Assembly (NCBI GenBank): GCA_951406725.2
Contig: OX597831.1
Coordinates: 24,862,001 to 24,926,000 of the forward strand
DNA from: Octopus vulgaris
Taxonomy: Eukaryota
Direction: 5' to 3'
DNA length: 64,000 nt
The notes under the pieces: generated by a model
What the model was told of the DNA's origin: nothing
What the model saw: only the letters and a program-made list of their open reading frames with translations
Database searches by the model: none
In this document: positions 3,073 to 41,599 of the stretch, piece after piece
Layout: every line of letters starts with the position of its first letter
How positions within the stretch are numbered: position 1 is the stretch's first letter
Position numbers and translations under genes: made by a program

Positions 3073-4025
3073 GATGATTATTGTGTAAAATCTAGGCTTC
3101 CTGAAACAGCTGTCAAGATAAGACATCACATAATTTCCTTATGTACATTTACTCTTAATCCTCTTTTTTTTGTGCTCCAGGTAAATATATATATAGCAAG
3201 CCTAATTTGTGTTTATCTATCCTTCTACTTAAGTATTTCTGCATTTTACATGGAGATTGTATTGAGAGACATTATTTTCCTCAGGAGTTGACAGGAGATT
3301 ACATTGATTTCAGCAGCTCTCAACAATATTGCACTCTTCCCAGTGGTTATGAGCAGCAATAACGCAACTAATGAATGTTCTTTCGACTGTACTGCAACAT
3401 GTTTTTCTCCTCTGTTATCTCTTCAGTCACTGCATCAAAATGTGTGCAACTTGTGGCCATGCCAACCAAGCAGCCACTAGATTACCCTATATACATACAT
3501 GTATGCATAATTATATATATATATATATATATATATATATATATATATATTATATATTATATATATATTTATATTATATATATATTTATATCATATATAT
3601 ATTATATATATATATATATTATATATATATATATTATATAGCATCCACCCTTATGGGTTAGCCATATTCAAATGGCAAATATGCAACACGATGTGTTATC
3701 GCTACTGTTTATAACTGTCTCTGAGATTTATCATTATTATATATATATATATATATATATATATATATATAGATTATATATATATATGAATGTTTTTAAT
3801 ATTTTTTTTTTATAATGCCAAAACAATCCAAGTTAAAATAAATAATACAGGTCGATGAAATATTGAAATACGAGATAAAAGTATTAAGCATTGATTTGCA
3901 TTATTTCTTATAACTTGCATTGTTTTGGCATTATGAAAAAAAAAACAATTAAAAACATTTATATATATATCAGACAATGTATCATAAAAACGATACTACT
4001 ATACATACATCTTCATACATACGCA

Positions 4026-4414
4026 TACTCTTTTACTCTTTTACTTGTTTCAGTCATTGACTGTGGTCATGCTGGAGCACTGCATTTAGTTGAACAAATC
4101 GATCCCAGGACTTATTCTTTGTAAGCCGGGTACTTATTCTATTGGTCTCTTTTGCCAAAATGCTAAGTTATGGGGACGTGAACACACCAGCATCGGGGGG
4201 GACAAACACAGACACAAACACACACACACACACGCATATATATACATATATACAATGGGCTTCTTTCAGTTTCCGTCTACCAAATCCACTCACAAGGCTT
4301 TGGTCAGCCCGAGGACATAGTAGAAGACACTTGCCGAAGGTGCCATGCAGTGGGACTGAACCTAGACCATGTGATTCGTAAGCAAGCTACTTACCACACA
4401 GCCACTCCTATGCC
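4026..4414 (-). mobile_element. SINE family A, full length
   Basis: Same head, body and tail as 290-701. Confidence 0.92.
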
Positions 4415-4481
4415 TATCAACACATTAGAGACAGAATCTGTCAGCACTTTCTGTTATAGTTCTACTGCATCATGGTCAGCA

Positions 4482-4783
4482 TGGAGTTAAACAGTAACAA
4501 CAACAGCAACAATATTTATAGGGAATAGATGGCAAAGGTCAGTGCTAGAAACAACAAGAATCCTGTTGGACTAATGAAGGAGTTTTTATATTTTCACTTG
4601 ACCTGCCAGAAATAGCAAGTAAATTGCCCTTAAATTATACCATATTGTCCTAATTAAAGGAAGATCACTTTAGATAATGTAAGCTTCGATATATAAAAAG
4701 ACAAGATAATTATTATTTGTATGTCTTTCATCATAGATAGGTGTTGAGGACTAATGTTGACCTTGGGTTAATCAGCAACAACC
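4482..4783 (+). repeat. ~300 bp segment duplicated at 14839-15143
   Basis: Colinear, highly similar direct copy, including non-repeat flank and an old repeat remnant. Confidence 0.85.
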
Positions 4784-5264
4784 CCATTAGGAGCCCTGTA
4801 TTATTAACAAATGTTTTTAGTTCCCCCATTTTGTTTCATATGCTTCCCAACAATGACCCTGCATCAGGACAGAAGGATGCAGTGATCCCCTGAAGAGCAA
4901 ATGAATCGTGGCACACATTAATTCCCTGATAACAAATTTAGGTATAAGCTGTTAGCACTTGTGGCACCGGTTCTCGCTCACGTTCGTATATAGACATTTC
5001 GAGAGCGACATATACGCAATCAAAGTCAAAATTTCTTCATATCTATAACTAGTTCTAAGCTGCCAGGTATGACATTCTCTGCTAGCAACTTAACTTGGAG
5101 TTCTATAAATAATTTTAATTGGAAAATAAATACGAAAATGTAATTAAGTACTAATTCAAGAATTTAGTGATTGACAGAACATTTGTCTTGGAGCACTATA
5201 CTAGATTTTGACTTCATTGCTTTTCTCTTGTAGTTTGTTAGATCTCATCATGAACATGACTGCT

Positions 5265-5690
5265 ATGGCCATCATTGTCGTAACCATCATTATTATTGTT
5301 TTTATTATTATCATTTATATCATCATTATTTACAACATTGTCATCGTCATCATTTTCATCTTCGTTTCCATTATCATCAATGTTTTCATCTTTATTATCG
5401 TCGTCATCATCATCATCACCATTATTATCAGTATCCTAACATCACCATTATCATCACTGTCATCATCATCTTTGGCATCATCATATATGTCATTATCATC
5501 AGAATCACTATTTTCATCATTGCCATCATCATCATCTTCAGCATCATCATATATGTAATTATCATCAGTATCACCAACACCACCATTATCATCATTGCCA
5601 TCTTCATTACTGTCATCATCATCATAATCATCATCCTCCATGCTGGAACCACCATTATCATCATCATTGCAATATAATATAACCATTGTA
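5265..5690. repeat. Degenerate (ATC/ATT)n low-complexity tract
   Basis: Cryptic trinucleotide repeat; produces spurious I/S/D/M-rich ORFs. Confidence 0.9.
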
Positions 5691-5903
5691 ATATCTGTGT
5701 TTAAGTAAGTTGACTTATAGCTGAATAAATGTAATCACTTAAGTCTGGTTTATACACCCATGTGAAACCATGTTGATATAGATCAGAGCTTCTCAAACTA
5801 TCTGATGTGACGTACCAGCAGTTTTCTTTTTTTTTTTTCCAATGTTCCAGGAACTGATGATATTTCTTAGTAATATTAATTTATACCGGAAACAATATAT
5901 GTA

Positions 5904-38776: not shown

Positions 38777-39072
38777 TCATCATCAGCATCATCATCATCA
38801 TCGTTTAACGTCCGTTCTCCATGCTAGCATGGGTTGGACAGTTCGACCGGGGATCTGGGAAGCCAGAAGGCTGCACCAGGCTCCAGTCTGATCTGGCAGA
38901 GTTTCTACAGCTGGATGCCCTTCCTAACGCCAACCACTCCGTGAGTGTAGTGGGTGCTTTTTACGTGCCACCTGCACAGGTGCCAGGAGAGGCTGGCAAC
39001 GGCCACGGTCGGATTGGTGTATTTTACGTGCCACCGGCACGGAAGCCAGTCAAGGCGGCGCTGGCATCGGCA
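38777..39072 (-). mobile_element. Family C element
   Basis: (CAT)n tail plus body. Confidence 0.85.
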
Positions 39073-39130
39073 ACATTGTTAATATATGGTAATGGGTTGG
39101 AGTAGTCGGTGGTGTGCCAGATGTAATACA

Positions 39131-39688
39131 TGGAGGTGCGTGACTTAGTGGTTAGGGTGTTAGCATCATGATCGTAAGATTGTGGTTTCGATTCCTGGAC
39201 CGGGCGACTCATTGTGTTCTTGAGCAAAACACTTCATTTCATGTTGCTCCAGTCCACTCAGCTGGCAAAAATGAGTAACACTGCGATGAACTGGTGTCCT
39301 GTCCAGCTGGGGAACACATACGCCATAGAAACCGGGAAGCCGGGCCCATGAGCCTGACTAAGCTTTAAAAGGGCGCATTTATTTGTGGAGGCACATGGCC
39401 TAGTGGTTAGAGCAGTGGAGTCACGGTCAAGGGATTGCGGGTTCGAATCTCAGACCAGCCGATGTGTGTGTTTAAGAGCGAAACACCTAAGCTCCACGTT
39501 GTTCTGGCAGAAGGTAATGGCAAACTTCTGCTAACTCTTTCACAACAACTTTCTCTCACTCTTTCTTCCTGCATCTTGCTGCTCACCTGCGATGGACTGG
39601 CGTCCCATCCAGGTGGGGAACCTACATGCCAAGGAAACCGGGAAACCGGCCCTCATGAGCCAGGCATGGCTCGAGAAGGAACAAACAA
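39131..39688 (+). mobile_element. Dimeric SINE (family E + family D)
   Basis: Two tRNA-like heads (39132 and 39385); 12-bp TSD CAGATGTAATAC at 39118-39129 and 39689-39700. Confidence 0.88.
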
Positions 39689-39924
39689 CAGATGTAATAC
39701 CTAACAATAAATAGTTTTGGCTGTGTATGTTCAGAGTTCAAATCTCACAGGAGGTCATCATTGCCATCTATACTTCTGGGATTAATAAAGTGTCTTTCAA
39801 GAACTGGGGGGAGGGGTCAATTAAATCTGTTCTTTTCTCAGGTGGAGAAAGGGTCCCACCCCTGACTGTTAGGACTGAGAAGTGGGTGGATGAATTTTTA
39901 TCTCTTTCTGTCATCCTTTACTTC

Positions 39925-40650
39925 TTTCTGTCATTAGACTGTGGCCATGCTGGGGCACCACCTTGAATGAATCAACCCTAGTTGAATGAATCAACCCTAG
40001 TAATTATTTTTTTTCTTTTTAACCTGTTACTTATTCTATCAGTCTCTTTTGCTGAGCTGCTAAGTTACAAAGACTTAAACATACCAACACCAGATGTCAA
40101 ATGGTGATGTCTCACACACACACACACACACACACATATGTAATTATAAGGTTCAAGGATCTAAGTGTAGGAAGTTTGTAAGCTTTGAGCAGTCTTTTTC
40201 AAATTATAGGTTTAGTGAGTTATCTTGGGATTCCTTAATGACAATGTAACCTTCATATAATTAAGGTATCTTTAGTCTGATGAATAGATATCCAAGTATC
40301 CCTCACTGAAAAATTATTACACCAGAGGATCTGCTAACTAGGAAACATATGTAGCCTGAATTTTACCTGCTCCACTCCTTCATTTTGAGCGTTCAAGGCC
40401 TTTGAGCCTTGAAGTCTTGTACCTTCATCAGAAGTCTTGTACCATGTTTTGCTTTTTTGAGACTCAAGACTTTTCATACACCCCTTGTATATTTATACAA
40501 CGGGTTTCTTTCAGTTTCCATCTACCAAATTTACTCATATGGCTTTGGTTGACCCAATGCTATAGTAGAAGACACTTTCCCAAGGTGTCATGCAGTGGGA
40601 CTGAACCCAGAACAATGTGGTTGGGAAACAAACTTCTTACCACACAGCCA
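39925..40650 (-). mobile_element. SINE family A interrupted by a hammerhead-bearing insert
   Basis: Tail about 39925-40110, head about 40495-40650; unrelated insert at about 40140-40490 in the microsatellite. Confidence 0.78.
40271..40360 (+). ncRNA. Type I hammerhead ribozyme motif
   Basis: TTTAGT-CTGATGA-ATAGATATCC...GGATCTGCTA..-GAAA-CATATG-TA^GCCTGAA; palindromic helix III ACATATGT; helices I and II imperfect. Confidence 0.68.
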
Positions 40651-41250
40651 TGTTTGAAAAAATTAATTCGCTTTGAAGCTTTTTAAATGTGTCCAAAACA
40701 ATGGTGAGGAAAGAATTATATGGAAGCAAACTTTGTATCAACTACTTGTTCTTAGAGAGGAATGGTGTGTTTAAGAGTTTATTAAGTTTCTTTTCTATTT
40801 TCTTGGCACAGAACACAAGTATTTTTCAGTTGAAGAAGCACCGGTTAGATATTTAATTGACTGTACTTCTCTACCCAAAGTTTTTGGTCATGATTTTGTG
40901 CCTATGTTAGAAACATTTACCATTATTATTAGGCACAAGAGCAGAAGCTTGCTTTCTGTGTGGGAAGAAGCTGACTTCTCAACCACATGGTTCCCAGTTC
41001 AGTCCCATTGTGTGGCACTTTGAGTAAGTGTCTTCTGCTATGGCTTCAGGCCAACCAAAGCCTTGTGAGTGGATTTGGTATGGGGGGAAACTGAAAGAAG
41101 CCTGTTGTATATACATATATATGAATATGTATAATTTCAGTAAAAACAATTAAGATTCAAGTGAGTTCCAATGAATTCACATGAATGCAGTACTTAACTT
41201 AGATGCACCAGAAATCTATATGGTATTAACCATAAAATAATGTGGGGTGA

Positions 41251-41599
41251 TTATAAACAAGAAAAAAGCAACAAGAATGGATTAGTTGTTCAGTAAAATT
41301 GTTTCATACGAAGAACAGCTTTATTAAAAGCTGCAAATATTGCAGCAAATACAAGCAAATACAGACTTCAAAAGTTCTGCTTACAATCTAACTTTGCTTT
41401 TCATAGAACTCTCTTCGATACTTCATGAGTGTAGCCTCACCCCCCTAGGATGTTTGGAAAACTCATATGTGTTTTGGCTGATGAATACGGGACACTTGTA
41501 TTTGTTGCAATATTTGCAGCTTTTAATAAAGCTGTTCTTCATATGAAACAATTGTACTGAACAACTAATCCATTCTTGTTGCTTTTTTCTTGTTTATAA
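41251..41599. mobile_element. Fold-back element containing a hammerhead, downstream of a SINE A microsatellite
   Basis: ~105-bp inverted arms 41251-41355 / 41495-41599; (TA)n on the right, SINE A 5' half (about 40960-41110) on the left. Confidence 0.75.
41471..41562 (+). ncRNA. Type I hammerhead ribozyme motif with long branched helix II
   Basis: GTTTTGG-CTGATGA-ATACG...C(G/A)TAT-GAAA-CAATTG-TA^CTGAAC; palindromic helix III ACAATTGT. Confidence 0.78.

Follow-up and report, generated by a model that had tools for sequence, protein, structure and literature searches.

Background

Hammerhead motifs, a palindromic helix III, insertion into (TA)n and inverted copies are already published for Penelope-like elements (PLEs), including a Hydra-clade family of octopus. 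For that family, Hydra-1_Obim of Octopus bimaculoides, Craig et al. 2021 (PMC8557442) give the (TA)n preference in File S1 and a hammerhead with palindromic helix III in File S2. The same work describes the Neptune clade by GxKF/Y, DKG, a Cx2-5CxxC linker and, at the C-terminus, a GIY-YIG domain, and an octopus was described with 31 recently active PLE families (PMC13282606). Hammerheads in the two same-strand pseudo-long terminal repeats (pLTRs) of one element are described as acting as a dimer (PMC4209133; review PMC6765202). The protein of an anole PLE cuts AT-rich DNA on both strands and uses two internal start sites of reverse transcription that define an optional tail, and the hammerhead of that element cut only when the protein was present (PMC11167929). 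Here, a stretch of 64,000 nucleotides of Octopus vulgaris (contig OX597831.1, positions 24,862,001 to 24,926,000; the window) was analysed, following an earlier note that had described dispersed hammerhead inserts in it. The window holds copies of ten repeat families that carry a type I hammerhead motif; three of these families lie directly behind PLE open reading frames (ORFs), and all ten are very probably 5'-truncated PLE 3' ends inserted in (TA)n. Families are named below by the position of their copy in the window.

Hammerhead motifs in the window

A strict descriptor of type I hammerheads (CUGANGA without mismatch, helix I of at least 4 bp, helix II of at least 2 bp, palindromic helix III) found three sites in the window, at 8971 (minus), 10711 (minus) and 41478 (plus), against a mean of 0.03 in 200 local dinucleotide shuffles, none of which reached three. 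The claim of dispersed inserts with a hammerhead core, more frequent than in dinucleotide-shuffled sequence, is borne out by these counts. All ten helix III strings were found where they had first been placed or no more than about 30 nt away, with sites 8899, 10680 and 34058 on the minus strand. With one core mismatch permitted there are ten window matches, four of which are noted sites and six of which look like chance. In 40 arbitrarily placed 10-kb stretches (400 kb), three strict motifs were found compared with 0.45 in 20 shuffles. The motif is genome-wide, the window being richer than average (3 per 64 kb versus 3 per 400 kb). When no palindrome was demanded, 116 matches in 249 fetched loci (a selected set, partly overlapping) formed 21 clusters, of which 17 have a palindromic helix III, against 1 of 23 matches in eight shuffles. 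The palindrome is thus above chance; of the covariation read into it, the pairs ACTTGAGT/ACTCGAGT and ATGT/ACGT are to be struck out, as they reflect CpG decay of single copies.

Three helices at a junction, A15.1-U16.1 and H17 are present, as in a type I hammerhead. The consensus core CUGANGA/GAAA is found in families 41471, 8899, 10680, 6307 and 32164 and partly in 40271; the cores of 19489 (A3-U8, extra base), 34058 (U6), 3103 (U3) and half of 34352 (C4) depart from it. Single window copies are further damaged, by G12 to A at 6307 and 19489, by G5 to A at 34352 and, at 3103 and 32164, by a missing 5' half of the motif. Alignments of 11-14 relatives in nine families trace this damage mostly to CpG decay or 5'-half loss, and the complete motif is seen in genome-wide relatives of the damaged copies. 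An Rfam scan of the window gave no hammerhead family among the matches listed (150 of 305), which are microsatellite-driven miRNA and similar matches.

Repeat families and their targets

Every one of the ten sites is a member of its own dispersed repeat family, with sizes of 83-3,449 given as first-look candidates (40 scored per search) in a genome of 2.8 Gb. Ragged 5' ends and clustered 3' ends are common to all ten. Of 134 copies, 91 (3/12 to 12/12 by family) have (TA)4 no more than 26 nt from the 3' end, versus 5.6% of random 30-mers, in agreement with the microsatellite targeting described earlier. A role of repeats borne by short interspersed nuclear elements (SINEs) as landing pads is not supported: SINE A adjoins 12 of 106 target tracts versus 86 of 483 random (TA)n tracts, so that it shows no enrichment and is simply one common (TA)n source. 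Of the three inserts that had been placed in SINE A, 6307 and 40271 do sit inside its microsatellite, nested between SINE A halves; 41471 only abuts one half. Inverted arms, noted before as pseudo-LTRs, are present at five of the ten sites (6307, 8899, 19489, 32164 and 41471), and a crude test found inverted copies in 26 of 134 family copies. The term retrozyme-like finds no counterpart here, as no tandem hammerhead array was seen in the window among the 150 of 273 tandem-repeat rows listed, and the family queries match the window once or as an inverted arm only. Helix II arms reach 40-80 nt in many families. At least 12 more hammerhead families with other palindromic helix III strings were seen, often adjoining the queried inserts, in the flanks of loci L002, L008, L010, L058, L072, L086, L109, L116, L119 and L242.

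Association with PLE open reading frames

Families 41471, 19489 and 34058 lie directly behind ORFs with reverse transcriptase (RT) and GIY-YIG domains of PLEs. The attribution to PLE-type hammerheads of many families is upheld. The predicted linkage to GIY-YIG and RT ORFs holds for these three; in the fetched copies of the other seven no such ORF was linked. The label of an ORF-less class is unsupported, because three of the ten families are truncated ends of ORF-bearing PLEs; the remaining seven share the anatomy of ragged 5' and fixed 3' ends.

At locus L021, two copies of family 41471 placed 4.2 kb apart are the pLTRs of one element. These direct repeats are 377 bp long and 97% identical, each with the 41471 hammerhead, and enclose a frameshifted ORF with RWK, DKT, YRDD, CxCx5C and a GIY-YIG-like domain. 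The GIY-YIG match of this piece in a Pfam scan is weak (E 0.005), and the Hydra ORF searched against Pfam gave no family at E 0.01. A search with the Hydra endonuclease yielded 18,379 first-look candidates, of which 150 were scored. In a sister subfamily, five of the ten loci fetched hold a frame of 976-984 codons without interruption, and four of these five (L240-L243) have a hammerhead on the same strand at either side. Inspected by eye, the translations of L240-L246 and L021 contain RWK, DKT and a CxCx5C linker, lack GxKF, and have CxxC and CxH in the endonuclease; the assignment to Hydra is made by these motifs against the definition in section 11 of PMC8557442. Insertion in (TA)n was found for 19 of 20 Hydra family copies. 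The unit between hammerheads (4.2 kb in L021, 4.65 kb in L240) is above the descriptive Hydra size of less than 3 kb.

The arms of family 41471 end at +42/43 after the cut site in 18 cases, at +157 or beyond in 28 and elsewhere in one, as counted on a reference that ended at +175 in (TA)n and with some arms doubled where loci overlap. One short end (+42) and one long end (~+160) are joined in each of the 11 distinct inverted pairs. These ends fit the two internal start sites of the anole PLE.

The uninterrupted Hydra ORFs (~950 aa; L240 1877-4750, L241-L243 and L246) contain long Asn-rich inserts, and the pLTRs are 99% identical; by its sequences, this subfamily is a very recent expansion. In contigs of four runs presumed to be RNA, 25-30 of the 30 bins of L240 are covered; these contigs may be DNA and display no ends of molecules, so that they speak neither for nor against expression. 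Locus L247 (G000:C8:49747000-49756999), close to a copy of a Hydra PLE, holds a 217-bp direct repeat and an 808-codon frame on the minus strand (4326-6752), which resembles the gag/protease/integrase of a Ty3/gypsy-type element.

The end of family 19489 lies behind a Neptune-type ORF that contains stops and has GLKF, DKG, Cx4CxxC and GIY-YIG (L137/L138). The end of family 34058 lies behind an 826-codon frame with a Pfam RVT_1 match (E 1e-07), GLRF, DKG and Cx4CxxC (L387), which emerged after one upstream walk; among endonuclease loci of this family a parsable hammerhead follows in 23 of 30, with U6 in 23 of 23. By their motifs both elements are assigned to the Neptune type, or possibly to Nematis. 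Direct pLTRs were not found in the fetched loci of these two families. In the 19489 lineage, a polypyrimidine-CAG stretch and a small hairpin stand just upstream of the variant hammerhead (L137 7620-7660 and relatives). PLE pLTRs can hold introns, and the stretch is possibly a 3' splice site.

Proposed course of insertion

In the course proposed for all ten families, the PLE endonuclease would cut (TA)n and reverse transcription would start internally, at a fixed distance behind the hammerhead. Early stops of reverse transcription would leave most copies as a hammerhead and a few hundred bases. An inverted arm would arise from a second priming at the other DNA end; the different start sites of the Hydra arms (+42 and ~+160) are observed, and two primings would be the way to read them. 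The hammerhead would act in tandem source elements, where the palindromic helix III would let two copies on the same strand pair with each other, perhaps with help from the protein of the element. Solo and inverted copies are likely to be inert, because a solo copy lacks a partner and an inverted arm is antisense.

Variant hammerhead cores

The cores of 19489 and 34058, listed in the earlier note as imperfect, are fixed family variants, a point overlooked there; the variant cores are traits of the source elements and not decay. The 19489 lineage has A3 with U8, or G3 with C8, in the motif behind the endonuclease. Its helix I co-varies on both sides, different palindromes occur as its helix III, and A, U or C stands at position 17. 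When positions 3, 7 and 8 were left free in the search pattern, 258 matches were obtained, and none in controls: 143 are A-U, 90 G-C and 25 other, so that the 3-8 pair is Watson-Crick in 233. The first 100 of these, inspected by eye, comprise 50 A-U, 42 G-C, one U-A, one G-U and six mismatches. A second pattern gave 147 matches; of the first 100, 95 were A-U by eye. A further 1,231 A3-U8 matches (control 10) come from more distant Neptune-type families, and helix I has at least 4 bp in 20 of 30 inspected, in several different sequences whose sides vary in step. In a tree of 3-8 states (71 of 92 loci parsed, four rows with mis-parsed labels, flanks partly unrelated, midpoint root), A-U rows are mostly nested inside G-C rows. 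For family 34058, 18,342 exact matches with U6 were counted, in which position 7 may be any of the four bases; its A6 form was matched 168 times under a tighter loop pattern. Position 7 is free to vary while G5, G12-A14, A15.1-U16.1 and H17 remain. An alternative reading of the 19489 motif, with C as position 17 and a longer helix III, fails in relatives that have an 8-nt helix III.

The A3-U8 and G3-C8 cores probably cut slowly, and the U6 core is probably weaker still. Variants in print are U3-A8, A6C, U4C and U13a (PMC4209133, PMC3088659), the literature consulted on core variants including PMC3884650 and PMC6155905. No report of A3-U8, natural G3-C8 or U6 was found in the literature searched; Lunse et al. 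(PMC5785218), Arkhipova et al. 2017 and Przybilski and Hammann 2007 lie outside its coverage and may report them. The family-wide swapped and U6 cores are likely a new variant of the PLE hammerhead, with putative activity. A wider reading is put forward tentatively, as possible rather than probable: one genome may hold working PLE hammerheads with all four 3-8 pairs (C-G, U-A, A-U and G-C) and a U6 core, each fixed in sources amplified to hundreds or thousands of copies and missed by standard descriptors, with the active fold kept by selection through the double swap.

Several results weigh against these readings, of the cores or of the ten families as PLE ends. Hammerhead mutants of the anole PLE had no effect on insertion in vitro, and RNA-seq ends at the cut site were not found in that study (PMC11167929). 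The tree of 3-8 states is poorly resolved and fits one or few switches from G-C to A-U, the counts being copies and not events. In the youngest 19489 subfamily, helix II is just 2 bp long and the core holds an additional base. Monomers and dimers gave mixed results in simple energy folding, the hammerhead fold not being recovered for every one. The ORF list and tblastn revealed no PLE protein in the window. No ORF was linked to seven of the ten families in the fetched copies, among which only 32164 was walked upstream, without success.

The variant cores, above all the U6 core and the extra-base form of 19489, may no longer cut, in which case the fold would be a binding or priming signal for the protein of the element, or a passenger. 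This alternative is a serious one, if somewhat short of probable. By the anole mutants just mentioned, insertion in vitro can do without cleavage; Naiad PLEs are successful although they have no canonical hammerhead (PMC8557442); a natural A6C variant had a cleavage rate of less than 0.1 per minute (PMC3088659); and U6 is no hindrance to a family of at least 18,342 copies. However, the active fold has a 3-8 pair among its tertiary contacts, and this pair was kept as Watson-Crick in the proportion given above; the freedom of position 7 beside a constant G5, G12-A14, A15.1-U16.1 and H17 also speaks against this alternative. An engineered G3-C8 double mutant, moreover, partly restored cleavage of a PLE hammerhead (PMC11167929).

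Families without a linked ORF

Some of the seven unlinked families could be specialised non-autonomous elements (retrozyme-like, or short derivatives of PLEs) which have been without an ORF from the start and make use of PLE protein. The upstream sequence of their fetched copies, in which RT and endonuclease were not found, is consistent with this, as are the candidate counts of up to 3,449 and the derivation of animal retrozymes from PLE pLTRs argued for in a preprint (10.64898/2026.07.22.740005). It is nevertheless considered unlikely. Relatives were picked by likeness to a short window piece, which under-samples long copies; family 34058 was likewise ORF-free until its single upstream walk; and the 5' ends are ragged, with no tandem hammerhead array seen. 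Two candidates for a complete 32164 element were rejected: the apparent 5-kb direct repeat of L386 held no PLE ORF, and the endonuclease of L368 belongs to another family. The reading of all ten families as truncated PLE ends is retained. Chance matches in AT-rich, repeat-rich DNA, to which the six stray one-mismatch matches and the Rfam result (150 of 305 matches listed) might point, are an extremely improbable source of the motifs in view of the shuffles, the palindromic clusters (17/21 versus 1/23) and the fixed place behind PLE ORFs.

Inserts in the window

Family sizes in this section are first-look candidates. The old copy of family 3103 (3060..3185, plus; 83 candidates) retains only the 3' half of the motif, with GAA at 3103-3105, helix III ACAGCTGT at 3106-3113 and C17 at 3114; an alignment of relatives shows U3 together with A8 or G8 in old copies. 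In place of the 5' half, nested short palindromes lie amid SINE fragments at 2951-3072. The 6307 copy (6290..6415, plus; 3158 candidates) has its core at 6320-6326, helix III ACTCGGAGT at 6361-6369 and U17 at 6370, with an inverted 5'-truncated arm at 6232..6289 (minus); G12, A in this copy, is kept in 9 of 11 relatives. The 8899 copy (8751..9260, minus; 431 candidates) carries an intact-core hammerhead with the core at 8971-8965, helix III at 8922-8915, U17 at 8914 and a helix I of 8 bp; its inverted arm (9264..9414, plus) has (TA)n at the end. The 10680 copy (10586..10790, minus; 3449 candidates) has a minimal hammerhead with the core at 10711-10705, helix III ATGT (family form ACGT) and A17 at 10685.

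The 19489 copy (19484..19738, plus; 1516 candidates) is the 3' end of a Neptune-type PLE, with an A3-U8 core at 19491-19497, an extra base after position 12, helix III ACCATTGGT at 19509-19517 and U17 at 19518; its inverted arm (19373..19488, minus) is 96% complementary. The 32164 copy (32141..32338, plus; 2571 candidates) lost the 5' half of the hammerhead at the joint with its inverted arm (31994..32143, minus) and has helix III ACACGTGT at 32167-32174 and C17 at 32175; CUGAUGA is found in 9 of 11 relatives. The 34058 copy (33960..34140, minus; 1992 candidates), the 3' end of a second Neptune-type PLE, has a minimal hammerhead with a U6 core at 34090-34084, helix III ACGT and A17 at 34063.

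The old 34352 copy (34220..34515, plus; 1787 candidates) has a decayed core at 34353-34359, helix III ACTTCGAAGT at 34378-34387 and C17 at 34388; position 4 of this family is C in 15 and U in 14 of 30 relatives matched. The 40271 copy (40195..40388, plus; 1381 candidates) combines an exact core (40277-40283) with a long helix II, helix III ACATATGT at 40345-40352 and A17 at 40353. Nearly all copies of this family (window 40268-40362) have an unpaired G on either side of the helix II base, in place of G10.1-C11.1. The 41471 copy (41381..41599, plus; 1418 candidates, 97-99% identical) is the 3' end (pLTR) of a Hydra-clade PLE, with an exact core at 41478-41484, helix III ACAATTGT at 41548-41555 and A17 at 41556. 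It stops at (TA)n, 43 nt past the cut site, and its inverted arm (41125..41355, minus) has the long tail (~+160 after the cut site).

Other features of the window

The window is rich in SINEs and microsatellites. Head-to-tail doublets of SINE-like units of 183-217 bp were observed at 12286-12650, 15470-15907 and 18020-18389. On the minus strand, a 98-codon frame at 63101-63397 resembles a mariner-type transposase end, and ORF fragments at 36922-37522 resemble the C-terminal part of the ORF of a CR1/RTE-type long interspersed nuclear element.

Significance

The purpose of the PLE hammerhead is still open, and the variant cores matter for this reason. A 3-8 tertiary pair that is preserved through changes of its letters is an argument for selection on catalysis; the more than 18,000 copies of a U6 family are an argument that fast cutting is unnecessary. 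The natural core variants are ready constructs for the question of what the hammerhead does. Searches with the consensus core miss whole families; if the reading of the variant cores is true, PLE hammerheads are under-counted, and some PLEs described as hammerhead-less may have swapped cores. With the rule of one long and one short end in inverted pairs, the two start sites observed in vitro can be tested on genomes.

Comparison with known systems

Animal non-LTR retrozymes (10.64898/2026.07.22.740005; PMC7229834) resemble these families in their type I hammerhead, mostly ORF-less copies and link to PLE pLTRs; they are described as tandem arrays with a hammerhead per unit, whereas the copies here are solo or inverted truncated ends. 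The variants of Perreault et al. 2011 (PMC3088659) include covariation of 3-8 (U3-A8), A6C, U4C and GAAA with one inserted base (U13a). These are rare single examples, in contrast to A3-U8, G3-C8 and U6 here, which are family-wide in hundreds to thousands of copies. Cervera and de la Pena 2014 (PMC4209133) describe minimal type I hammerheads in metazoan PLEs that likewise have CUGANGA...GAAA, a helix III that is palindromic, copies that are mostly dispersed and solo, pairs on opposite strands 100-700 bp apart, many families in one genome and a U3-A8 variant. A3-U8, G3-C8 and U6 were not found in the covered text of that study, and in many families here the helix II arms are 40-80 nt. With the Neptune clade (PMC8557442) the likeness extends to the GxKF-like motif, DKG, Cx4CxxC linker, C-terminal GIY-YIG, microsatellite bias and a hammerhead behind the ORF; the hammerhead cores here differ in being non-canonical.

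The Hydra clade is matched in RWK, DKT, the CxCx5C linker, CxxC and CxH around conserved E and N, and the C-terminal GIY-YIG. It is also matched in the (TA)n target, the canonical hammerhead with a palindromic helix III of 4-5 bp, the inverted 5'-truncated copy and the tail at one end, the likeness to Hydra-1_Obim being one of described features. The Octopus vulgaris elements differ in a unit of ~4.2-4.7 kb versus less than 3 kb, in long Asn-rich inserts and in a 60-nt helix II arm. They also differ in abundance: intact ORFs and 18,379 first-look candidates for the endonuclease stand here against the few families listed in PMC8557442.

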